This document shows positions 3,461-14,628 of a stretch of DNA of 15,804 nt, one piece after another. The notes under the pieces were generated by a model. That model searched no databases. It saw only the letters and a program-made list of their open reading frames with translations, and was not told where the DNA came from. Source of the DNA: Nostoc punctiforme NIES-2108 (GTDB lineage: Bacteria > Cyanobacteriota > Cyanobacteriia > Cyanobacteriales > Nostocaceae); NCBI GenBank assembly GCA_003326195.1, contig LXQE01000136.1, positions 308,087 to 323,890 of the forward strand. Reading direction: 5' to 3'. The translations under genes and the position numbers were made by a program. Positions within the stretch are counted from its first letter, which is position 1; every line of letters starts with the position of its first letter.

Positions 3461-6127
3461 CTAAATAGCTTTCATTGGCAGACTGACAACGAATGTCGCC
3501 CCCTGTCCAATTCCTGGACTTTCGGCCGAGACTGTGCCACCGTGTAATTCTACCAAGTGGCGGACGATCGCTAACCCTAATCCTAATCCTCCATGCGATC
3601 GCGTGCTGGAACTGTCAGCTTGACGAAAACGTTCAAATACATGGGGTAGAAATTCCGCAGCAATTCCTGCTCCCGTATCACTCACCCGAATTTGCACGCA
3701 AGATTCAATGCACTCTAATTGCACATCAACTCTGCCGCCCTTGGGTGTAAACTTGACAGCATTGGAGAGCAAATTCCACACAACCTGTTGCAAACGGTTG
3801 GCATCGCCCACAACTACTTCTACCTTTGGGTCGAATCTACACTTAATACTAATCTCTTTAGCCTGGGCTGCTGGGTACACAGTATCGATTGCCGCTTCTA
3901 CAAGTGGTACAATTTCTACCCGATCCGTACTTAAATGAAGTGTGCCTCTAATAATGCGTGATACATCGAGAACATCTTCAATTAGTTGTGTCAGGGATCT
4001 AGTATTACGTTCAATTGTCTCTAGTGCGCGGCCAGTAGTAGCTTGATCGAATTTGCGCGTTCTAAGTAGCTGTGTCCAGCCTAGTATAGCGTTGAGCGGT
4101 GTACGGAGTTCGTGAGAGAGTGTGGCGAGAAACTCATCCTTCATCCGGTTTGCAGTTTCGGCATCGGCGCGTGCTGCTTGTTCGCGTTTAAGCAGTTCTT
4201 CGCGTTCTTGCTCTGCTTGCTTGCGATCGCTAATATCAATCATGAATCCATGCAGTAGCTGTGGCCCATTTTCATCCCGCACTACATTCACAATGTCATA
4301 CAGCCAGACTACTCTGCCATCAGCAGCCAACATTCTGTATTCAAATTCATAATTATTTAGTGATAGAGAAGATTCTTGGCAATACTGAATAGCCCACTTC
4401 CGATCTTCTGGATGCATATTTTTTGCCCAGAAATTATCGGTGTACCAGTCTGACAATGGATAGCCTAGAATCTCAACAGTTTGTGGCCCTACATAAGTAA
4501 AATTCCCAGTAGTGGCATTTACCTCCCAAGGAATCACACGGACTTTTTCCGTGAGTGTCTTTAAACGTTTCTCGCTTTGTTTGAGAGCTGCTTCTGCTAA
4601 CTTATGAAGTGTAATATCTGTGATTAGGGCAACAAATCCTGCAACTTTTCCCTGGTGACTGAACTGGGGAACGTAAGTAATATTTAGGTAATGGTTTGTG
4701 CCATCTTTATCGGGTACTTGGGTTTCGTAAGTTACTTTTTCTCCTGAAAGTACCGCTTCTATATAAGGAAGAATTGACTGATAAACAGATTCTCCGACAA
4801 TTTCTCTAATGTGTTTACCATAAATTTCGGAAGTAGGAAGCCCAAACCAGTCTTCATATTCTTTATTATTAAAGCGATAACGCTGCTGACTATCAACATA
4901 AGAAATCTTGGCGGGCACAGCATTGGTAATTAGACGCAGTTCATCTTCTCGTTGACGGAGTGCTGCTTCTGCTTGCTTGTGTTCTGTGATGTCGCGTTGA
5001 GTTCCCCACGCTCTAACTAAAAGCCCATTTTCGACAATTCCCACCAGATTATTCAAAAAATATTTGGAATTACCTTGCTTATCTATTTCATGGGACTCGG
5101 CATCTATTAGTCGGTAGTTAGAACGTATAAAGTTACGCAGGTATGCAATATTATGTGGATCGGAGGCAACAAGAAAGTCTCCTAATCTGACACCGATAAT
5201 TTCTTCGGCACGAGAACAGCCATACATCTGTGCCATAACATTGTTGCATTCTGCCAGGTAAACATATTGGTAAAAATGTTGAATTTGTTCATCTTCTGGA
5301 CAATCTGCTGAAATTGGTACTTCCAGTTCGATGCACCAAATACCTTCTGAACTCTGCTCTAAAAAAGTGCGGTAGCGTTCTTCGCTTTTGGCAAGGGCGA
5401 GTTCTACTTGTTTGCGTTTGCTTAAATCAATCACAAAAGAAATAATATCATTTTGGTTATTTTCTAACAAAGCAGAACCTAACAGGATGGGAACGCGACT
5501 ACCATCTTTGCGGATGTATTCGTTCTCAAAAGACTGACACACGCCTTTAGTTGTGAGTTCTGCAATCGCACTGTTGTTAGTTTCAATATATTCTGGTGGG
5601 ATCATCTCGTGCCATCTGACTCGCCCTGCTAGCAAATCCTCCTGCGAATAATCTACCATTCTTAAAAAAGCATCATTAGCCTCTGCGATTGCCCCGTCCA
5701 TTTTGGCTACAATTACCCCAATAATGTTGGACTCTACCAACCTTCTAAATTTTGTCTCGCTCAACTGTAGTTTCTGCAAACTCATTTGAAGATGTTGTTT
5801 GGCAGCGCGTAATTCTAAGTTCAGCAAGTTAATAATTGTTGTCACCAGCACAAACAAGCCTAAGCGCAGTATATTGTCTAGACTGGCAACCAAGAGCGAA
5901 AACACTGGTTCTAAGAAAAAGTAGCTGACGGCTAAAGTAGACAAAGCAGTAGCCAATAACCCTGCTTCCATACCGCCATACCAGGCACTAACCGCCACGG
6001 CAGCAAAAAACAGCAAAAAAATACTTGGTTTCAGTAGTGGCTGTAGCAATAGTGTTAATAGCAATACGCTACCAACACCCAATAATGCCACAGCATAAGG
6101 TGCTAGAAGGGAACGTGTTCCTCTCAA
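3461..6127 (-). CDS. Sensor histidine kinase: N-terminal DUF4118-like membrane domain, about 4 PAS domains, HisKA, HATPase_c; 888 aa; no receiver domain
   Basis: The N-terminus has 3-4 TM helices (LLAPYAVALLGVGSVLLLTLLL...WYGGMEAGLLATALSTL). Repeated PAS-like blocks are each preceded by coiled-coil linkers ending in ITE(H/L)K / DIS(D/K)RK. The H-box FLATLSHELRTPLNAILGW has its His codon at 4112-4114. N/G boxes are NLLSNAVKFTP, DTGAGI and GGLGLGLAIV. A TTG start at 6125-6127 has AAGGAG about 10 nt upstream. Confidence 0.9.
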   Translation of the reverse strand: MRGTRSLLAPYAVALLGVGSVLLLTLLLQPLLKPSIFLLFFAAVAVSAWYGGMEAGLLATALSTLAVSYFFLEPVFSLLVASLDNILRLGLFVLVTTIINLLNLELRAAKQHLQMSLQKLQLSETKFRRLVESNIIGVIVAKMDGAIAEANDAFLRMVDYSQEDLLAGRVRWHEMIPPEYIETNNSAIAELTTKGVCQSFENEYIRKDGSRVPILLGSALLENNQNDIISFVIDLSKRKQVELALAKSEERYRTFLEQSSEGIWCIELEVPISADCPEDEQIQHFYQYVYLAECNNVMAQMYGCSRAEEIIGVRLGDFLVASDPHNIAYLRNFIRSNYRLIDAESHEIDKQGNSKYFLNNLVGIVENGLLVRAWGTQRDITEHKQAEAALRQREDELRLITNAVPAKISYVDSQQRYRFNNKEYEDWFGLPTSEIYGKHIREIVGESVYQSILPYIEAVLSGEKVTYETQVPDKDGTNHYLNITYVPQFSHQGKVAGFVALITDITLHKLAEAALKQSEKRLKTLTEKVRVIPWEVNATTGNFTYVGPQTVEILGYPLSDWYTDNFWAKNMHPEDRKWAIQYCQESSLSLNNYEFEYRMLAADGRVVWLYDIVNVVRDENGPQLLHGFMIDISDRKQAEQEREELLKREQAARADAETANRMKDEFLATLSHELRTPLNAILGWTQLLRTRKFDQATTGRALETIERNTRSLTQLIEDVLDVSRIIRGTLHLSTDRVEIVPLVEAAIDTVYPAAQAKEISIKCRFDPKVEVVVGDANRLQQVVWNLLSNAVKFTPKGGRVDVQLECIESCVQIRVSDTGAGIAAEFLPHVFERFRQADSSSTRSHGGLGLGLAIVRHLVELHGGTVSAESPGIGQGATFVVSLPMKAI

Positions 6128-6272: not shown

Positions 6273-6854
6273 CAACACTTAATTATGCATCGGAAAAATA
6301 CATATCCAAGAAGTTACTTGCTGCTAATCTATCTAAAGTAGTAAATCTTAGATTTAAAAAAGTTCAAGAATCTGATAATTATCGCTCTAATTATATATGT
6401 TTTATTTTTGAGTCTCTATCAAACAGTAGAGATTTATTAAGACGAATTCAGAACTCAGTAGTCGGATTATGCAAGTCCAAAAAAAATATAATCCTTGATA
6501 GGAGTTTTGCATAAGCCCCAACAAATAAGAGTAAATAATTCTACTACAATCAAAATTTTGAATGCGTATATTCTTATCTTCTAGATGTGAATTTACCCAA
6601 AGAAAAAAAGCAATTAAAGTTAAGCCAGCTATTAATATAATCTACACCTGCAATTGCAACCGTTTCAGCAAAAAGCTCTGTCGCTATTCTTTGTAGGATT
6701 CGGACAGGTTATTGTTGGTTTGCCGATGGGACATTCAGTGACTAATGAGCGCATCTAATTGGGTTTTGTCGGAATTAGTTTGATGAATCATGCACTTTTT
6801 GCGTTATTAGTAATCAATAGACTAGGGAATGGGGCATGGCGAATGGAAAAATTA

Positions 6855-6909
6855 CCAATGCCCAATGCCCAATGCCCAATGCCCAATGCCCAATGCCCAA
6901 TGCCCAATA
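6855..6909. repeat. Heptamer tandem repeat (CCCAATG) x about 7.7, STRR-like, ending 3 nt before the helicase ATG
   Basis: Units sit at 6861, 6868, 6875, 6882, 6889 and 6896, with a partial unit at 6855 and a degenerate unit at 6903-6909. A partially complementary GGGGCATGGCGAATGG lies just upstream (6829-6846). Confidence 0.95.
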
Positions 6910-6912
6910 CTC

Positions 6913-8517
6913 ATGGCTCGTACCCCTACATTAAATTTTGATCGTGGCACATTAATTTTGCATCCACCACCACGCGGCAAAGGTTGGATGGATTATGCTA
7001 CGTGGGATGATAGAGTTGAAAAATTCCGCATTCCAGCAATTAGATATCGATCGCTAGTGGAAGCACTACAAGCGGAAGATGTGAATTTTATCGATGAGGC
7101 CAAGCAATTTTATCCTGTAGATTTGGTTCCCACTCTGGAAATGGAACCCTATCCCCACCAAACTGAGGCGTTAGCGGCTTGGAAACTGGCGGGTAGACAA
7201 GGAGTCGTTGTGCTTCCCACGGCGGCGGGAAAGACTTATTTAGCGCAAATGGCAATGCAATCAACGCCACGCACGACGCTGATTGTAGTCCCAACTTTGG
7301 ATTTAATGCATCAATGGTATGCACATTTAGTAGCGGCTTTCCCCGATGCGGAAGTGGGATTGCTGGGAGGTGGTTCGCGGGATAGAACGGCAATTTTAGT
7401 TGCAACTTATGATAGTGCGGCAATTCACGCCGAAACGTTGGGAAATCAATATGCGTTGATTGTTTTTGATGAATGTCATCATTTACCCACAGATTTTAAT
7501 CGGGTAATTGCCGAATATGCGATCGCACCTTATCGCCTGGGACTCTCCGCGACACCGGAAAGGACTGATGGTAAACACGCTGATTTAAATATCCTCATTG
7601 GTCAAGAAGTATATCGCAAACGCGCCGAGGATTTGGCGGGGAAGGCGTTAGCAGAGCATGAAATTGTCCAAATTAAGGTAAAGTTATCGCAACTTGAACG
7701 GGAAAGATACAACCAATTAATTCAAACTCGCAATGACTTTTTGAAACAATCGAAAATTTCTTTGGGGAGTTTGCAAGGTTGGCAAATGTTCGTGCAAATG
7801 AGTGCTAGATCGCAATCTGGACGTAGGGCTATGTTAGCGCATCGAGAAGCGAAAGATATCGCTTTGGGTACTGATGGAAAGTTGCGAATTTTGATTGATT
7901 TATTGGCAGAACATTATCCGGCGAGAATTTTGATTTTTACTGCTGATAATACAACGGTTTATCGCATTTCTCAAGAGTTGCTAATTCCGGCAATTACTCA
8001 TCAAACTCCTGTGAAAGAACGGCATGAGATATTAACAAAGTTTCGAGAGGGTAAATATAATACTTTGGTTGCTTCTCATGTGTTGAATGAAGGGGTTGAT
8101 GTGCCGGCGGCAACTGTTGCAATTATTTTATCGGGGACGGGTTCGGCTAGGGAGTATACTCAGCGCTTGGGGAGGATTTTACGGAAGGGGAATATTGAGA
8201 ATAAGCAGGCGATTTTATATGAGGTGGTGGCGGAGGATACGAGTGAGGAGGGGACTTCGGCTAGGCGGAGAGGGGAGAGGAAAGACGAACCGCCAAGACG
8301 CGGAGGACGCAGAGAGGAAGAGGAGAGGAAAGGGAAGTTACAGGTTGTGTATGGGAGTGGGAAGGAAAGGAGTTTGAAGGCGGCGGAACAGTTAGAAATT
8401 AATTATTCAACCGGAAGTCCAAAATCTAAAATCCAAAATTCAGCAGATGTTACCGACAGACTTACTGATGCATCGCCAAAACGGGGAGGAGATTATTCCG
8501 AAGAGACTGAAGATTGA
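6913..8517 (+). CDS. SF2 helicase of the XPB/Rad25 (Ssl2)-like DNA repair helicase family, about 534 aa, with a low-complexity Arg/Glu/Gly-rich C-terminal tail
   Basis: Q/Ia region YPHQTEALAAW, Walker A LPTAAGKT (7216-7236), motif II DECHH (7468-7482), motif III LSATPER, motif VI QRLGRILR. The N-terminal ~70 aa (LNFDRGTLILHPPP...WDDRVEKFRIP) resemble the XPB damage-recognition-like domain. The start is placed at ATG 6913 rather than the track's 6829, which reads through the heptamer repeat. Confidence 0.85.
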   Translation: MARTPTLNFDRGTLILHPPPRGKGWMDYATWDDRVEKFRIPAIRYRSLVEALQAEDVNFIDEAKQFYPVDLVPTLEMEPYPHQTEALAAWKLAGRQGVVVLPTAAGKTYLAQMAMQSTPRTTLIVVPTLDLMHQWYAHLVAAFPDAEVGLLGGGSRDRTAILVATYDSAAIHAETLGNQYALIVFDECHHLPTDFNRVIAEYAIAPYRLGLSATPERTDGKHADLNILIGQEVYRKRAEDLAGKALAEHEIVQIKVKLSQLERERYNQLIQTRNDFLKQSKISLGSLQGWQMFVQMSARSQSGRRAMLAHREAKDIALGTDGKLRILIDLLAEHYPARILIFTADNTTVYRISQELLIPAITHQTPVKERHEILTKFREGKYNTLVASHVLNEGVDVPAATVAIILSGTGSAREYTQRLGRILRKGNIENKQAILYEVVAEDTSEEGTSARRRGERKDEPPRRGGRREEEERKGKLQVVYGSGKERSLKAAEQLEINYSTGSPKSKIQNSADVTDRLTDASPKRGGDYSEETED

Positions 8518-9661
8518 TCAAAAAACTTCGGAATTGGCGATTGAGTTAATTAATTATTTTCAATCAGCAGTGGGGAAGACTCAAGGTGTGCTTGAGCGAC
8601 AACTGACTGATTTTGAAGGAGATTCTACAGATTATAGGGTGAAGCGGGGATTAGCTTATATTCTCAAAAGCAGTTTTTGCACTTTTGAGGTGGTTAGTCC
8701 TTTGGAACCACAGATGTTAAGAGAACGGGTATTTTCTCTGGCTGCAAAGTCTGTTTCTAGTCGAGAATCTACACAAGTTAGTCTGGGTAAAATTGCTGAT
8801 GAATTAACTCAAGAACTTGAGCGAGAAGTTTTATTAGAACAGGTTCGGAATGGATTATACGCTGATTTATCTGAAAATAAGATTTTGACTGTTTTTGATG
8901 CACCAACAGCGCCAGATTTATTAAATCGATATAACTTATCTCAGGTACAGGGTGTGTTTTATAAGGCCAGTCAACTGGTGTTAAATGCTCATCGGAATGT
9001 TCCGGGAGAATATAAGCTGTTATTTCGCTATTTAAAGTTGTTTCAATTGATGGCTTATATTGAAGGTGATGCTGACCACGGGTTTACAATTACCATTGAT
9101 GGGCCGACGAGTTTGTTTAATCCTAGTACACGATATGGGTTAGCGATCGCTAAACTTATTCCGGCTTTACTTCACGTTACTAAATGGAGTCTTTCGTCGA
9201 TTCTCCAAACCCGTGATGCTTATACAAATACTTGGAAAACTGGACGTTTTACTCTCAATTCTGAATGTGGTTTGGTATCCCATTATCCACCAGGAAAGCC
9301 CTACGATAGTATGTTAGAAGCATCCTTTGCAGATAAATGGGATGCGTTGAAAAGTGGTTGGGCATTAGAGCGAGAAGTTGATTTGATCCCAATCCCTGGT
9401 AGTGTGATGATTCCTGATTTTCGCTTAGTTCATGCTGATGGACGCACCTTTTTATTAGAAATTGTTGGTTATTGGCGACCAGAATATTTACAAAAGAAGT
9501 TTTCTCAGGTGCGACGGGCTGGACGTGATGACTTAATTTTGGCAATTTCCGAGCGACTTAATTTAGAAAAGGCGGGAGTAAAATTAAATGATGTCCCCGC
9601 TAGAATTGTTTGGTTTAAAGATAAGTTATTGCCGAAAGCTGTGTTAGCTGTAATGGATTGA
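8447..9661 (+). CDS. DUF790 family protein (Bax1-like, XPB-associated endonuclease), 404 aa
   Basis: The N-terminus MLPTDLLMHRQNGEEIIPKRL matches my recollection of the DUF790 N-terminus. The C-terminal nuclease-like core is IPDFRLVH...LLEIVGYWRPEYL. It lies immediately downstream of an XPB-like helicase and overlaps it by 71 nt, the arrangement known for archaeal XPB-Bax1. Confidence 0.7.
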   Translation: MLPTDLLMHRQNGEEIIPKRLKIDQKTSELAIELINYFQSAVGKTQGVLERQLTDFEGDSTDYRVKRGLAYILKSSFCTFEVVSPLEPQMLRERVFSLAAKSVSSRESTQVSLGKIADELTQELEREVLLEQVRNGLYADLSENKILTVFDAPTAPDLLNRYNLSQVQGVFYKASQLVLNAHRNVPGEYKLLFRYLKLFQLMAYIEGDADHGFTITIDGPTSLFNPSTRYGLAIAKLIPALLHVTKWSLSSILQTRDAYTNTWKTGRFTLNSECGLVSHYPPGKPYDSMLEASFADKWDALKSGWALEREVDLIPIPGSVMIPDFRLVHADGRTFLLEIVGYWRPEYLQKKFSQVRRAGRDDLILAISERLNLEKAGVKLNDVPARIVWFKDKLLPKAVLAVMD

Positions 9662-9676
9662 TTAAGGATAAATGAG

Positions 9677-9919
9677 ATGAAAAGTATAGAAACAATTGCC
9701 ACAGTTACAAAAGATGGTAAGATTATAGCGCAATTACCACTCGATATTCCAGAGGGTGAGCATCAGGTGGTAATAGTAATTGATGAAAAGCCTTTGACTG
9801 AGAAGGCAGAGAAGAAAGAAAAGCGTCCTCCTCTAAACTTTCCTGTGCATAATTATGGCCCTTGGCCTGAAAACCTTTCTTTAAGACGTGACGATATGTA
9901 TGGTGATTGGGGGCGATAA
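9677..9919 (+). CDS. Type II antitoxin (VapB-like, cyanobacterial small antitoxin family), 80 aa
   Basis: Small ORF 15 nt after the DUF790 stop. Its N-terminal beta-rich segment (ATVTKDGKIIAQLPLDIPEGEHQVVIVID) and C-terminal LSLRRDDMYGD motif are typical of antitoxins preceding PIN toxins in cyanobacteria. It overlaps the PIN gene. Confidence 0.65.
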   Translation: MKSIETIATVTKDGKIIAQLPLDIPEGEHQVVIVIDEKPLTEKAEKKEKRPPLNFPVHNYGPWPENLSLRRDDMYGDWGR

Positions 9920-10352
9920 TCCTGTTTTTCTGGACACAAATATCTTGGTGTACGCTAGTCAGATTCAGTCTCCATTTCACCAAGCTGCTATGGAGGCAAT
10001 CCAAGGTTTTTATGATGCGGGGATTGAATTGTGGATTAGCCGACAAATATTGCGGGAATATTTGGCTACCCTTACCCGTCCGCAACAGTTTGTTAACCCA
10101 CTACCCATTGCAATAGTAATTCAGGATCTCCGCTATTTTTATAACCGCTTTTGGGTGGCTGAAGATAGTTCTCAAGTTACAGAAAGATTACTGACGCTTA
10201 TGGAGGAAATTCCTAGCGGTGGTAAGCAAGTTCATGATGCAAATATCGTCGCTACAATGCTAATTTATGGTATTCCTCAATTACTCACTCACAACATAGG
10301 CGATTTTGCAAGATTTTCTCGGTTAATTACTGTCTTGCCATTACAAGGTTAA
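9900..10352 (+). CDS. vapC: PIN-domain ribonuclease toxin (VapC family), about 150 aa
   Basis: PIN acidic signature FLDTNILVYA (Asp), ILREY (Glu), VHDANIVA (Asp) and THNIGDF. ATG 9900 overlaps the antitoxin stop by 20 nt; the track's GTG 9888 is an alternative start. Confidence 0.85.
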   Translation: MVIGGDNPVFLDTNILVYASQIQSPFHQAAMEAIQGFYDAGIELWISRQILREYLATLTRPQQFVNPLPIAIVIQDLRYFYNRFWVAEDSSQVTERLLTLMEEIPSGGKQVHDANIVATMLIYGIPQLLTHNIGDFARFSRLITVLPLQG

Positions 10353-10493: not shown

Positions 10494-11183
10494 TTAACCC
10501 CAAACGCTTCTGCGTTCCCGATATTCAGCGACTCTTTTTTCCCACTGCTCCCAGTAATCTTTAATGACTGCTGATTCAAACCAAAATACCTCTGCTGGCA
10601 TTTCTGGAATCGCTACTACCAACAGAGCGTACTTTAGCTGAATGCCATAATCTTGATAATATTCGTTAGCTGCTCCTATATACGCCGTAAGTTGCAGTGG
10701 ATGTTCATATAAATGCTCAATTGAACCTTTGGGTTTGTCTGCTGTTTTCCACTCGCAAATACAGGGAATACCTTGATAGCTGGCAATACAATCAACTTTG
10801 CCAGAATAACCCAAATCATGATGAAAAACTGAGCCTTCTACAAGTCTAACTGTGTCAATTTGTTCTAAAACTGGCTTGATACTCTCCCAATAAGGGCGAC
10901 TTGCTTCGGGACAAACAGGGTTTTGACCAAGGAGGTAGTGCTCAATTTGTTTGTGTGTTTGGGTTCCCCGACGACTAGCGCTTGTAGTAATGCGGGTAGC
11001 TTCTTCTGTACCAACACGCGTTTTCCAGTTTAATAATCTGTCTCGGTCTGCTTGTGATTTGGTGGCATTAAGTATTGTAGTAACGCTGGGAAAACGATTT
11101 CCCTTGGCATCTACATAATATTGTTTACCATTTTCTCTTTTGGCTGTGGCATTAATGCGTGGTAGCAGTTGGGTATCATGCAT
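10494..11183 (-). CDS. PD-(D/E)XK superfamily nuclease (phage-type / RecB-like exonuclease family), 229 aa
   Basis: The N-terminal block FPSVTTILNATK...LLNWK...GTQTHKQIEHYL is followed by the catalytic-type GKVDCIA...ICEWKTA (D...ExK). Clean ATG start at 11181-11183. Confidence 0.65.
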   Translation of the reverse strand: MHDTQLLPRINATAKRENGKQYYVDAKGNRFPSVTTILNATKSQADRDRLLNWKTRVGTEEATRITTSASRRGTQTHKQIEHYLLGQNPVCPEASRPYWESIKPVLEQIDTVRLVEGSVFHHDLGYSGKVDCIASYQGIPCICEWKTADKPKGSIEHLYEHPLQLTAYIGAANEYYQDYGIQLKYALLVVAIPEMPAEVFWFESAVIKDYWEQWEKRVAEYRERRSVWG

Positions 11184-11372: not shown

Positions 11373-11792
11373 ATGGAACCTGTAACATTAACAGCAGTTG
11401 CAACTGCGATCGCTACTATAGTTTTAACTAAAGCTCTAGAAAAAACTGGCGAAAAGCTTGGGGAAGCTGCATTAGACAAAAGTCGTGAGTTAATCGAACA
11501 GCTACATAATAAAAATAAGTTACCTTGGCTAGCGGCTGCAACACAGCAGCCGTTAGATTATGGCAAAGCAGTGCTGGAGTTAAAAGCAGCAGCAGATGCA
11601 GATAGTGAAATTGCTCAATCTGTGCGAGAAATGGAAGCAGCCGCAAATGCTGATCCCCAAGCGCCGAAAGTCCAGGCGTTAGCAAATGACCTAAACTCGC
11701 AACCAGCAGGTATTATTAATTCTACAAAGTTAGCTGACTCTATTAAAAACGTCTTTCAGGGAAATACTTTCACTGGTACTAATAACTTCTGA
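11373..11792 (+). CDS. Small alpha-helical protein, 139 aa: hydrophobic N-terminal helix plus N/Q/G/T-rich tail; in frame with the downstream NB-ARC gene (probable detached N-terminal effector/adaptor module)
   Basis: The sequence starts MEPVTLTAVATAIATIVLTKALEKTGEKLGE, continues with Ala/Glu-rich helices and ends VFQGNTFTGTNNF. Its stop, TGA 11790-11792, is in the same frame as ORF 11868..13838. Confidence 0.6.
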   Translation: MEPVTLTAVATAIATIVLTKALEKTGEKLGEAALDKSRELIEQLHNKNKLPWLAAATQQPLDYGKAVLELKAAADADSEIAQSVREMEAAANADPQAPKVQALANDLNSQPAGIINSTKLADSIKNVFQGNTFTGTNNF

Positions 11793-11867
11793 CTGTACCC
11801 GCCTGTTGGGGAACAGGTAAAGTTAAATCCTTCTACTGAAACACCGCAAAATTTACCCCTGAGTGGA

Positions 11868-13838
11868 GTGGTGAAGTTTGTCGGGCGTGAAACTGAATTG
11901 CAAAACCTGCATGAGATGTTGCAGGAAAATAATCAGGTGGTAATTGCCGCGATCGCTGGCATGGGTGGACTGGGTAAAACAGAACTGGCCTTACAATATG
12001 CAATGGCTCACCGTGAAACTTACAAGGGTGGAATTTGCTGGTTGTTGCCAAAGGCTGGAGATGTGGGTATTCAAATTGTGCAGTTTGCTAGAACTCACCT
12101 TGACTTAAACTCACCACAATATCTGGATGGAGACTTACCCAGTCAAGTGAAATACTGCTGGCAGCACTGGCGTGAAGGTGATGTACTGGTAGTACTGGAT
12201 GATCTCAATGATTACTCCAAAGTTGAGACATATTTACTACCGCAACTACCCCGTTTTAAAGTGCTGATTACGACGCGATTACAGTTAGACCTTCCCCAGT
12301 CTTTTACTCTAAATGTTTTGGGTGAATCCTCATCTGTGGAACTTTTACAAGCTTGGGTGGGAGAAAAAGTAACACAGGAATCAGCAGCAGCAAAAAAACT
12401 CTGTGAATGTTTAGGTTATTTACCTTTGGCTCTGAACTTGGTAGGAAGGTATATTAAAAAGCGGAGAATCTCTCTGACGGAAATGGTGCAACGGTTGGAC
12501 GCAAAAGGGAAAGCGTTAAATCATCAGGCTTTGACGCTGGATGAAAAAGACCGCACTTGTACGCTAAATGTTAAGCGGGGTGTGATTGCAGCTTTTGAGT
12601 TAAGTTGGGAAAAATTAAGTAATGATGCCAAAGAGTTAGGTGTTTTACTGAGTTTATTTGCTTTAGCTCCTATTCCCTGGACATTAGTAGAAAGTGTAGA
12701 AACGGGGAAAGATGCTGAACAGTTGGAAGATAGTAGAGTTGAGTTAGAGAGTTTACATCTGCTTCAAGGTGAGGACAACTACCACCTACATCAACTCATT
12801 CGGGAATTTTTTCAACTTAAGCAAGCTGAGTTCAATCAAGTGGAGGAATTAAAGCGATCGCTTTGTCGGGTAATGGTAGGGATCGCAAAGTCAATTTCTC
12901 ATCCCCAGTCAATTACCCATAATACGATTACAGCAGTTAATCCTGCACTACAACATTTGGAAGAAGCTGCTAAAGCTCTAAAAGACTTAAGTAACGATGA
13001 CGATTTAATTTGGCTATTCACTGGTTTAGGCAGATTTTATGAAGGTCAGGGTTTTTATGAACAAGCAGAGACTTGGTATAAACTGTGCATAGAGGTTGCC
13101 GACAGACCTTCTAGCTTTGCTGCTTTATATAAGGCCTCTAGCCGCAACAATCTAGCATCACTCTACACATTTCAAGGATATTATTCACAAGCAGAAGAGC
13201 AATACAAAGAAGCTTTAGAAATAAACAGGCATCTGCTAGGCGAGGAACATCCTGATACAATTACCACTTTGAGCAATTTGGCATATCTTTACAAAGCTCA
13301 GAAGTTTTACGAAAAGGCAAAACCTATCTACAAAAGAGCTTTAGAATTAAGGATCTGCTTATTGGGAGAGACTCATATTGATGTAGCAACAAGCCTTAAT
13401 AATCTGGCAGCTTTATACTCTGAAGAGGGCAACTATTGGGATGCAGAACTGCTGTGTACAAGATCCATAGAAATCTGCCAGATAAATATAAAAATCTGCC
13501 AGATAAATGAAAATTTTCTAAAACTCACTTTTAGCTTAAATACTCTAGCAAATATTTATTGTGGGCAGCATCGCTACAGTGAAGCTGAACAAAAATATCA
13601 ACAAGTCGTGGCATGGCGAAAAACCTTATTAGGAGAAGACCATCATCAAGTGGCAATCAGCTTAGATCAACTGGCATATCTTTACCGTATCCAATACCGC
13701 TATAAGGAGGCAGAAATATTATGTGTAAAAGCTTTAGAAATTTTTGAACAACGGCTGGGTGTCAATAATCCTGATACGGTTATGTGCCGTGAAAATTTAG
13801 CATATCTTCGCGATCGCCTCCCCCCAAATCCAGAATAA
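11868..13838 (+). CDS. STAND NTPase, NB-ARC domain plus C-terminal TPR array (NLR-like), 656 aa as drawn
   Basis: FVGRETEL pre-P-loop helix, Walker A GMGGLGKT (11958-11981), Walker B VLVVLDDL (12183-12206), LPLAL motif (GYLPLALNLVG). At least 6 kinesin-light-chain-type TPRs follow (LNNLAALY, LSNLAYLY, LDQLAYLY, ...LGE(E/D)HP). Only a GTG start is available and the upstream sequence is open in frame back to TGA 11790. Confidence 0.85.
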   Translation: MVKFVGRETELQNLHEMLQENNQVVIAAIAGMGGLGKTELALQYAMAHRETYKGGICWLLPKAGDVGIQIVQFARTHLDLNSPQYLDGDLPSQVKYCWQHWREGDVLVVLDDLNDYSKVETYLLPQLPRFKVLITTRLQLDLPQSFTLNVLGESSSVELLQAWVGEKVTQESAAAKKLCECLGYLPLALNLVGRYIKKRRISLTEMVQRLDAKGKALNHQALTLDEKDRTCTLNVKRGVIAAFELSWEKLSNDAKELGVLLSLFALAPIPWTLVESVETGKDAEQLEDSRVELESLHLLQGEDNYHLHQLIREFFQLKQAEFNQVEELKRSLCRVMVGIAKSISHPQSITHNTITAVNPALQHLEEAAKALKDLSNDDDLIWLFTGLGRFYEGQGFYEQAETWYKLCIEVADRPSSFAALYKASSRNNLASLYTFQGYYSQAEEQYKEALEINRHLLGEEHPDTITTLSNLAYLYKAQKFYEKAKPIYKRALELRICLLGETHIDVATSLNNLAALYSEEGNYWDAELLCTRSIEICQINIKICQINENFLKLTFSLNTLANIYCGQHRYSEAEQKYQQVVAWRKTLLGEDHHQVAISLDQLAYLYRIQYRYKEAEILCVKALEIFEQRLGVNNPDTVMCRENLAYLRDRLPPNPE

Positions 13839-13983: not shown

Positions 13984-14346
13984 TTATATAGGCAATCGCC
14001 TCACTCGGAAAGTTTCATTACTTACAGAAATAATTGCCCCTAACTCTAAATCTTCCTGGCATTCACTCAAAACTTGAGTCAACCGTTCATTAATTGCATC
14101 ATAATTTTCGTTCCCCAACCTAAACAAAATCACACTAGGTAAACTATCCCCACTCACGGCTAAAAGTTGGGCAAAATCTAAATCTATAGTTAATAAAATT
14201 CTTCCTTCTGCACGGGCTTTAATTAAAATCTCATTATCTGGTAGTCTTTGCAAACCTTCATCGCGCAAATGCACTACATCATAATCAGCACCACGCAACC
14301 AAGTTACAGTGCGTAGTGAAATTCCCATATCTGCCAAAAACTTCAT
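13984..14346 (-). CDS. DUF5615 family PIN-like / Mut7-C-like putative toxin, 120 aa
   Basis: MKFLADMGIS...VVHLRDEGLQRLPDNEIL..A..EGRILLTIDLDF is the characteristic DUF5615 pattern. It lies 9 nt downstream of a DUF433 gene. Confidence 0.7.
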   Translation of the reverse strand: MKFLADMGISLRTVTWLRGADYDVVHLRDEGLQRLPDNEILIKARAEGRILLTIDLDFAQLLAVSGDSLPSVILFRLGNENYDAINERLTQVLSECQEDLELGAIISVSNETFRVRRLPI

Positions 14347-14355
14347 TATTACTTG

Positions 14356-14628
14356 TTAAGCACTTTTGAAGGTATAAACCCGTTCTTGAGTCAACCACGC
14401 TGCATAAAGAAGAGATTGACGAATATCTTCTGCTTCTAAATCAGGATATTCTTCTAAAATTTCTTCTATAGACTTTCCATGAGCTACCAAATTTACCACT
14501 AAAGAAACCGGAATCCGCATCCCGCGAATGCAAGCTTGTCCAGCCATAATGCTAGGGTCAAATGTAATTCTCTCCAGACCTAACATAAACGATCGCTCCA
14601 AAATCTTTTTCATCGCTCTGAGGTGCAA
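14356..14628 (-). CDS. DUF433 domain protein (putative antitoxin / HTH partner of DUF5615), 75-90 aa depending on start
   Basis: ITFDPSIMAGQACIRGMRIPVSLVVNLVAHGKSIEEILEEYPDLEAEDIRQSLLYAAW matches the DUF433 consensus (DP.i..G.p.I.GtRi.v..i......G.s.eeIl..yP.l...di..al.Ya). Alternative ATG starts lie at 14613 and 14586. Confidence 0.75.
   Translation of the reverse strand: MHLRAMKKILERSFMLGLERITFDPSIMAGQACIRGMRIPVSLVVNLVAHGKSIEEILEEYPDLEAEDIRQSLLYAAWLTQERVYTFKSA

Follow-up and report, generated by a model that had tools for sequence, protein, structure and literature searches.

A stretch of 15,804 nucleotides of Nostoc punctiforme NIES-2108 (contig LXQE01000136.1, positions 308,087 to 323,890, hereafter the window) carries an NLR-like locus in which a small helical protein of 139 aa, referred to here as the N-module, is separated by a single in-frame TGA from a large STAND NTPase. 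Our analysis makes it likely that this stop is subject to programmed UGA read-through, one translational unit thus giving rise to a free effector of the Bell/BASS5 type and to a rare effector-NLR fusion. This reading is favoured because several features converge on it, namely the continuity of the frame, the UGA-CUR context of the stop, a covarying pseudoknot behind it, conservation at synonymous sites, the lack of a start codon or Shine-Dalgarno (SD) sequence proper to the NTPase, and a peptide from the linker between the two domains. The table of open reading frames (ORFs) and the sequence itself agree that 11373-13838 is one open frame whose sole stop is the TGA at 11790-11792. As an earlier sequence-only reading of this DNA had stated, the ORFs 11373-11792 and 11868-13838 share that frame and the 25 codons in between (11793-11867), which read LYPPVGEQVKLNPSTETPQNLPLSGV.., are open. 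The large ORF is a STAND NTPase of the NB-ARC/TPR (NLR-like) type, a P-loop NB-ARC domain (GMGGLGKT at 11958-11981) followed by TPR repeats, and the hidden Markov model scan returned the very domains that had been guessed from the letters (PF00931, E 1.6e-14; TPR_10/TPR_12).

The position of the stop is conserved far beyond the window. We fetched 79 genomic loci solely by similarity to the 139-aa protein, and these contain 81 copies of its gene (loci are cited below by our own L numbers and proteins by P numbers). The small ORF ends with TGA in 80 of the 81 copies, and with TAA or TAG in none; in the remaining one, L072 (1995-2455), a premature TAG interrupts the N-module and its frame is changed, yet the TGA element persists downstream, and this copy is to be regarded as decayed. 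Past the TGA the frame stays open in 76 of the 77 loci with a full N-terminal match, over 400-1200 and typically 600-1200 codons, and it leads into a STAND NTPase in approximately 70 of the 81 copies. In the homologous loci, resemblance to the NTPase of the window begins at the codon directly after the TGA, and the first 10-14 codons (L[QYHE]S[PS]....[EQ][RQ][VT]K.[NT]P) are common to all downstream architectures. The bases behind the stop are no less constrained, +4 being C in 77 and +5 being T in 78 of the 81 copies, and UGA-C is the weakest stop context of bacteria. Ordinary long ORFs of the same loci end with TAA (148), TGA (100) or TAG (69), that is, with TGA in 32% of cases, and only 12 of those 100 ordinary TGA stops are followed by C, versus 77 of 81 at the junction. 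Likewise, the leucine codon of the junction is always CTR, even though these genomes use TTR twice as often and CTR accounts for 26% of Leu codons.

The N-modules sharing this TGA position are only 52-96% identical, and clustering divides them into 9 groups at an identity threshold of 80% and into 27 at 90%; therefore, the TGA does not derive from a single recent event that was copied repeatedly. Around ten loci (e.g. L004, L038, L049, L050 and L068) have truncated downstream ORFs, as expected for NLR genes with their fast turnover, and in one further, decayed copy (L082:4001-6700; strain record AP018216.1) an intact 152-aa gene is present with no NLR called downstream. A query spanning the junction (tail, W and linker) retrieved 22 proteins from 5.8e9, none of them extending across the junction, and of the 415 family representatives the best 150 include no case of a tail fused through a sense codon. 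Since no sense-codon relative crosses the junction, both products appear, from these comparisons, to be under selection. Four proteins considered as stop-to-sense variants (P0183, P0188, P0231 and P0265) were rejected, as they are joined at an earlier point; in these rare cases the N-module is represented by its first ~120-130 residues, lacks the tail and is fused directly to a different partner, namely a P-loop GTPase-like protein (823 aa), a HEAT-repeat protein without the NACHT P-loop, or proteins of unknown function. A frameshift was rejected as well, given that the downstream ORF lies in frame 0 everywhere.

The second conserved feature is an RNA structure following the stop, which was studied on an alignment of 71 distinct junctions and on a larger set of 129 distinct junctions, metagenomic ones included. 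On the 71 junctions RNAalifold, unaided, predicts a stem of 5 bp (stem 1) starting exactly 8 nt past the UGA, and a structure at that distance from the A-site codon is positioned where the mRNA enters the ribosome. In the same alignment 97.7% of the stem-1 cells are paired, with none of 500 shuffles equalling the observed values, and the bases are exchanged in concert at pair 2 (CG 57, UA 13, UG 1), at pair 4 (CG 32, UA 25, UG 6, GC 2) and at pair 5 (GC 67, CG 1, UG 1). Controls in which the arms were slid pair in 24-54% of cells versus 94.7% observed, and in the larger set all five pairs are formed in 122 of the 129 junctions through 20 different arm combinations. Among the compensatory changes, a silent exchange at the third base of a Pro codon (CCU/CCC) tracks a Gln/Arg exchange (CAG/CGG), and a Pro to Ser replacement (CCC to UCC) is coupled to one of Val to Thr (GUA to ACA); covariation which crosses the coding constraint in this manner is the signature of an RNA stem and not of a peptide. 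The loop of stem 1 pairs in turn with a segment 8-9 nt past that stem (stem 2, 89% of cells paired versus 24-54% in slid controls), in combinations as diverse as GGGA/UCCC, AGAGA/UCUCU, CAGGA/UCCUG, GAGGA/UCCUU, GGGAG/CUCCC, UGGGAG/CUCCCA and CGGGAU/AUCCCG, and its mean helix length of 4.34 compares with 3.49+-0.10 in shuffles, 0 out of 500 of which reach 4.34. As predicted from these alignments, the element is an H-type pseudoknot with an A-rich L3. Identity at synonymous sites amounts to 0.97-1.00 at codons +2, +3, +5, +9 to +13, +19 and +22, when upstream it is typically 0.4-0.8. The element occurs once in the window; Rfam returned no family for the window at the gathering threshold and none around the junction at E<=10, and the window contains no tRNA.

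No conserved start site for the NTPase is found past the UGA. In the window the first candidate is GTG 11868, whose first base is the last base of a GGAG (11865-11868), and because of this overlap no usable SD spacing is left; the first ATG is at 11916, so that both the late ATG and the abutting GGAG had been described correctly from the letters alone. Across the 129 junctions the distance from the UGA to the first in-frame ATG, GTG or TTG varies widely, between codon 6 and codon 80, and of 123 loci only 9 have a motif resembling an SD ahead of any start upstream of the P-loop. The first start even comes after the conserved FVGR/W.GR motif in several loci, and in L173 and L175 it lies 3 codons upstream of the P-loop. 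Gene callers choose differing GTGs in near-identical strains, placing the start of the NTPase at 4529 or at 4541 (L080/L081). Between the two ORFs of the window there is neither an intrinsic terminator nor a promoter-like site. Separate initiation of the NTPase is not supported, and the comparison of orthologues that had been proposed for discriminating among the possible readings of the locus gives a conserved TGA, no sense replacement and no conserved start or SD for the NTPase.

Translation of the linker can be traced in another strain. Genomes of the Nostoc/Anabaena PCC 7120 type encode a 152-aa homologue of the N-module (P0054; orthologous locus L081), and after its TGA the sequence continues with CTA CAG TCG CCC GAA CAG GAA CGG GTA AGG TTA AAT CCT..., no ATG, GTG or TTG being met until GTG GTG AAA (VVK). 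Among the genome-search-specific peptides identified by five engines at a false discovery rate below 1%, the proteogenomic study of Nostoc 7120 lists LNPEIPQNLPLSGVVK five times, and also FVGRDEELQELHK and AENVGLQVVQFAR (PMC8557916, Table S6A). All three are exact matches to L081, and LNPEIPQNLPLSGVVK is fully tryptic, preceded by an Arg and encoded between the UGA and every candidate start. Because this peptide maps upstream of all candidate starts, it indicates that the linker is translated in vivo in Nostoc 7120. Further linker peptides (LQSPEQER, NACHT-type linker) were absent from the parts of the supplement searched. Another peptide of Table S6A that falls outside the annotated proteome, TFEHDAFLEEVLK, matches the N-terminal region of NACHT-HEAT NLRs of the read-through type such as L070, and a second NLR of this type may thus be mis-annotated in PCC 7120.

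As regards the identity of the N-module, scans of Pfam, NCBIfam and PADLOC gave no match. Searching 5.8 billion proteins retrieved 275 relatives, the best 120 of which are all of about 139-152 aa, belong to Nostoc, Anabaena, Nodularia, Scytonema, Calothrix, Tolypothrix, Brasilonema, Aetokthonos and Microcoleus, and align over their full length, the tail ...KLA[ED]SIKNVFQGNTF.G...F included; a profile search of 1.84 billion cluster representatives yielded 415 family members, and nearly all of the best 150 measure 120-160 aa. Family members (P0081 and P0015) bear discordant labels in their sources, namely 'Holin' in UniRef and 'predicted RND superfamily exporter protein' in JGI, which are probably automatic annotations prompted by the hydrophobic first helix. 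This helix and the N/Q/G/T-rich tail, both pointed out by the sequence-only reading, are indeed present in the 139-aa module. The AlphaFold2 (AF2) model is all-helical with seven predicted helices, at a modest pLDDT of 62. Neither a profile search of the PDB with the N-module nor a Foldseek search of the model against the PDB gave anything significant (best E=2 in the latter), and Bcl-xL and the NRG1 CC-R, which appeared only at meaningless Foldseek scores, were discarded as fold matches.

The N-module fits the Bell type in size and shape, being 139 aa long and helical with a hydrophobic N-terminal helix (MEPVTLTAVATAIATIVLTKAL), and it sits directly upstream of and collinear with an NLR in the window and in approximately 70 homologous loci. 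Its tie to the Bell family, for which Pfam, NCBIfam and PADLOC hold no model, comes through homologues carrying BASS5-type pairs. In three loci (L063, L064 and L067) the small protein ends with ...KLAEKIGQVVIGGTGSIQNQSF-TGA-T and the next stop is 4 codons on; a NACHT-HEAT gene is found there in another frame with its own ATG and no pseudoknot. The NLR of these loci begins with M[AP]EDAGKFAEKIGVVAHNSTVNIHNQNIG..., a copy of the tail of the small protein, the motif KLAEKIGQVV..GSIQNQ being repeated at the NLR N-terminus. These pairs match the bass_05/nlr_08 pairs listed by Dyrka et al., e.g. KLADKIGQVVMPGGTGNIQNQ with MPEESGKFAEKIGVFAAPGAQVNIGTQI (Table S2, bioRxiv 10.1101/2020.01.06.895854). 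Since the two-gene relatives correspond to these published pairs, there is indirect support for the N-module of the window belonging to the Bell/BASS5 lineage and for its tail, TKLADSIKNVFQGNTFTGTNNF, as the putative homologous motif; the early guess of a HeLo/Bell-like module is upheld by the same indirect route. It had also been seen rightly that the NB-ARC ORF of the window does not repeat the tail motif at its N-terminus, and no second copy would be needed there, because read-through would supply the tail. Read-through and an own copy of the motif look like alternative routes to put the tail on the sensor.

The sensors found behind the TGA are diverse. NB-ARC with TPR_10/12 follows it in 56 loci, the window among them, and NACHT with HEAT and NCC-H in 12, while another NACHT (L073), NB-ARC alone (L074) and NB-ARC with TPR_1 (L075) are represented by a single locus each. 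In L051 (6436-8418) NB-ARC and DUF7779 are followed, in place of repeats, by a phycobilisome-protein (globin-like) domain (PF00502, E 1.9e-36). The TPR region of the window itself contains an in-frame 21-bp tandem duplication (13467-13508; 2.0 copies, 95% match), whose product ...EICQINIKICQINENF... represents a 7-residue insertion breaking one TPR.

Nor is the element confined to one kind of N-module. Scanning metagenomes with the element pattern gave at least 120 stretches, and among the 81 element matches listed, which fall in 80 loci, a recognisable N-module is encoded upstream in 43; chance matches, for instance in gut contigs, have no surrounding ORFs. The UGA and its pseudoknot were also found after a TIR_2 module (L150, E 3.9e-16) and after alpha/beta-hydrolase modules of the DUF676/PGAP1 type (L101, L104, L144 and L161), whose tail (GNIGVVNQNSSIQNQNIHQTF) resembles BASS5. 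The in-frame continuation was scanned for L150, L104 and L144 and is NB-ARC-TPR (L150:201-3173; L144:2-2587 (-)). Domains of the TIR, lipase-like and helical pore-former-like kinds are those classically found as effectors at the N-terminus of NLRs. It is likely, in our view, that UGA-CUR, the 8-nt spacer and a small H-type pseudoknot constitute a reused connector which joins Bell/BASS5, TIR and alpha/beta-hydrolase modules to STAND sensors in filamentous cyanobacteria and provides an abundant free effector along with a rare nucleating fusion.

On this basis the following mode of action is proposed for the locus. Most ribosomes would stop at UGA 11790 and release the free 139-aa module, a Bell-type, membrane-directed cell-death protein with a BASS5-like tail, and a minority would decode the UGA, most likely with a near-cognate tRNA such as tRNA-Trp, and proceed through the 25-codon linker into NB-ARC-TPR to give a fusion of 821 residues. 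The weak UGA-C(U)R context would promote read-through, and the pseudoknot, placed at the mRNA entry channel with the UGA in the A site, could act as a stimulator that slows or perturbs RF2-dependent termination. By analogy with Bell/BASS, HET-S/NWD2 and the Bab/Agp abortive infection (Abi) system, binding of a ligand would make the fusion oligomerise and thereby cluster N-modules and tails, and this cluster could then template the abundant free effector into a membrane-damaging assembly, leading to abortive infection or cell death. The efficiency of read-through would presumably set the ratio of sensor to effector.

Several alternatives to read-through have to be weighed. The one with most to recommend it, although it is unlikely, holds that these are two separately translated genes, the NTPase starting by itself at GTG 11868 or ATG 11916 and the RNA element serving in processing or stability, in coupling or in the ratio of the cistrons. 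Gene callers do annotate two genes (L080/L081), genuine two-gene Bell/NLR pairs exist among the relatives, and a strong SD is absent from many cyanobacterial genes. However, two genes would leave unexplained why the frame is universally identical and why the linker is open and conserved as protein from the first codon after the UGA; the positions of the candidate starts are not conserved, some being past FVGR or just 3 codons short of the P-loop; all of them are preceded by LNPEIPQNLPLSGVVK, which itself follows an Arg; and the true two-gene relatives use another frame and lack the element. Of the two-component pair contemplated by the sequence-only reading there remains, therefore, the free small protein, which is real and conserved, whereas separate initiation of its partner does not stand. 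Still less probable is a recent nonsense mutation or sequencing error in a fused NLR gene, a fresh pseudogene, to which we give practically no credit. There is but one in-frame stop and NLR loci do decay, as the truncated downstream ORFs mentioned above illustrate; on the other hand, 80 of 81 copies, drawn from many genera, agree in the position of the TGA, as do PCC 7120 and its relatives, the small-protein family is kept at 130-160 aa, and no fused ancestor with a sense codon was found. The fresh nonsense mutation entertained earlier is accordingly refuted by a TGA kept across N-modules of 52-96% identity and several NTPase families, and it is the other early suggestion, read-through to a free N-module plus a fusion, that the evidence favours.

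Decoding by other means deserves consideration too. It is improbable that the UGA is read by a dedicated machinery, be it selenocysteine insertion directed by a hairpin like the selenocysteine insertion sequence (SECIS) or a specialised opal-suppressor tRNA encoded elsewhere. An in-frame UGA, used exclusively and with a conserved hairpin 8 nt on, does recall bacterial selenoprotein genes, but here no relative has Cys or any other sense codon at the UGA position (best 150 of 415 representatives; junction query of 5.8e9 proteins), the site falls in an interdomain linker, outside any redox motif, the predicted fold is a pseudoknot whose second stem covaries, unlike the SECIS hairpin, and no Rfam SECIS model matched either at the gathering threshold or at E<=10. 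To our knowledge, no selenocysteine machinery has been reported for Nostocales. A non-linear mode of decoding, by termination and reinitiation at the next codon or by bypassing of stop and hairpin as in T4 gene 60, is very improbable. A stop closely trailed by a structure does resemble the signals for such events, and the RNA element constrains the first 10 linker codons, whose translation is consequently not directly evidenced. Against it, half of the loci have CUA, which is no initiation codon, directly after the UGA; the sense codon preceding the stop differs among loci (UUC, UUU, AAC, AUU, ACU, CCU ...), and no landing codon to match it occurs at a constant distance; and frame 0 holds from the codon next to the stop onward.

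Programmed read-through, for its part, has points that weigh against it. We know of no proven precedent for pseudoknot-stimulated read-through in bacterial chromosomal genes. In the window the hairpin is not unusually stable (minimum free energy -10.8 kcal/mol, z -0.33), stem 2 has just 4 bp, one of them G-U, and stem 1 could extend instead to a 7-bp hairpin; with a folding energy so unremarkable, the case for the pseudoknot rests on covariation. The metagenome scan used a pattern in which TGAC and parts of the stems were fixed, and its loci are therefore not counted for the conservation of those positions. For the N-module, modelled at a pLDDT of 62, no match in structure was obtained with HeLo, with MLKL or with Bab. 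The peptides stem from the homologous locus of another strain and from a supplementary list rather than inspected spectra, and no peptide across the junction was seen, so that the support consists of sequence and a linker peptide and does not reach UGA decoding itself. Finally, the amyloid or templating step is purely inferred by analogy.

Among known systems the locus comes closest to the Bell/BASS pairs of Dyrka et al. In both, a helical protein of ~140 aa, whose first helix is hydrophobic and which ends in a KLA[ED].I..V...G....-type tail, is encoded immediately upstream of an NB-ARC/NACHT-repeat protein and collinear with it. The window differs in that its NLR has neither a copy of the motif nor a start of its own and continues the frame of the effector past the UGA and the pseudoknot; the sensor would carry the entire effector and not the motif alone. 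Stop codons and read-through are unmentioned in the Bell/BASS paper (bioRxiv 10.1101/2020.01.06.895854). The Bab/Agp Abi system, which has been studied by experiment in E. coli, provides a functional precedent (bioRxiv 10.1101/2024.11.07.622273). With the fused NLRs, whether fungal (HeLo/SesB/TIR-type) or bacterial (Avs/bNACHT), the locus shares the logic of effector, NTPase and repeats as well as the types of effector (helical pore-former-like, TIR, alpha/beta-hydrolase), but here a conserved stop parts the effector from the NTPase. PADLOC gave no match to an Avs/bNACHT model, and only a generic TPR model was hit (E 2e-7).

As far as the RNA signal is concerned, stimulation of stop read-through by a pseudoknot is textbook knowledge for retroviruses and some RNA viruses. 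Moloney murine leukaemia virus (MoMLV) and other gammaretroviruses use UAG, an 8-nt spacer and an H-type pseudoknot for gag-pol, alphavirus/type II signals read UGA-CUA or UGA-CGG, and basal UGA read-through in bacteria is 1-6% (PMC13517186). The cyanobacterial element shares with the viral ones the leaky UGA-CU(A/G), the structure 8 nt past the stop, the H-type topology with an A-rich L3 and, as predicted, two products with a common N-terminus in a set ratio. It differs from them in its bacterial host (70S ribosomes, RF2), in being located in chromosomal immune genes, in its far shorter stems (5 bp and 3-6 bp), and in its occurrence in more than 100 paralogous cellular genes rather than in one viral gene. 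Bacterial recoding events such as the Q-beta coat/A1 read-through, the -1 frameshift of dnaX and the CUU-UGA-C +1 frameshift of prfB likewise derive a short and an extended product from one ORF, and have in common with the present case the use of UGA, and especially UGA-C, as the leakiest stop and a downstream structure at the mRNA entry channel, whereas in dnaX and prfB the frame changes and here frame 0 is kept. For Q-beta, no stimulatory pseudoknot is known to us. Our search of the full-text literature, outside which subscription-only papers remain, yielded no account of read-through at NLR loci of cyanobacteria or other bacteria, and the words pseudoknot, readthrough and NB-ARC are absent from a survey published in 2026 that covers the conserved RNA structures of 202 cyanobacterial genomes. 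Therefore, while Bell/BASS-NLR signalling and pseudoknot-stimulated read-through are each of a known kind, the apparent novelty lies in the joining of the two, in the bacterial host and in the scale.

The features of the locus are collected in the table below. In the window the locus stands isolated between genes of the opposite strand, and its neighbourhood, rich in toxin-antitoxin and nuclease genes, is compatible with a role in defence. Likely toxin-antitoxin pairs flank it at 9677-10352 and 13984-14628 (- strand), the first consisting of a small ORF overlapping a PIN (VapC-like) gene and the second of DUF433 and DUF5615, and a PD-(D/E)XK nuclease gene is found at 10494-11183 (-). Farther upstream (6829-9661) an XPB/ERCC3-like helicase (XPB_DRD, ResIII and Helicase_C) is followed by a DUF790 ORF overlapping it by 71 nt, which looks like a bacterial helicase-nuclease pair of the XPB-Bax1 type.

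Table 1. Coordinates of the N-module, the candidate recoding signal and the sensor in the window.
Feature	Position	Strand	Remarks
N-module ORF, 139 aa, Bell-like (TGA included)	11373..11792	+	Predicted major, terminated product
Hydrophobic N-terminal helix, MEPVTLTAVATAIATIVLTKAL	11373..11438	+	M1, L6, A12, I13, T19 and K20 invariant; AF2 helix 6-25
C-terminal tail, TKLADSIKNVFQGNTFTGTNNF, BASS5-like, putative amyloid-signalling motif	11724..11789	+	K119, L120, A121 and I124 invariant
Candidate recoding site UGA-CUG, opal stop in leaky UGA-C context	11790..11795	+	Conservation of TGA, +4 C and +5 T
8-nt spacer between UGA and pseudoknot	11793..11800	+	Spacing invariant in 71 and in 129 junctions
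Predicted pseudoknot stem 1, GCCUG 11801-11805 with CAGGU 11814-11818, loop 11806-11813	11801..11818	+	RNAalifold
Predicted pseudoknot stem 2, GGGA 11809-11812 (in loop) with UCCU 11828-11831	11809..11831	+	Covarying variants
L3, AAAGUUAAA	11819-11827	+	A-rich, AAAGUYAAA across junctions
Linker, 25 codons (LYPPVGEQVKLNPSTETPQNLPLSG)	11793..11867	+	Would be translated only upon UGA read-through; alignable in homologues right after UGA
NB-ARC NTPase domain	11889..12485	+	PF00931, E 1.6e-14, residues 33-231 of the translation from 11793
TPR sensor region	12948..13811	+	TPR_10 E 2e-47, TPR_12 E 3e-44, TPR_NPHP3 residues 386-520
Read-through extension, 681 codons and stop	11793..13838	+	With 11373-11789, predicted 821-residue effector-NLR fusion

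If true, this would be the first family-wide case of structure-stimulated programmed stop-codon read-through in bacterial chromosomal genes, operating in more than 100 NLR-like immune or cell-death loci, and a new way to set the stoichiometry of sensor and effector in innate immunity. The annotation of these loci, now given as a 'hypothetical protein' and an N-terminally truncated NLR, would change, and the element would offer synthetic biology a compact and portable tool for read-through in bacteria. Read-through would also account for the many Bell-NLR pairs in which the expected second amyloid motif is missing, and both the ratio of sensor to executioner and the silencing of the executioner in NLR systems would become testable through one codon or one stem.

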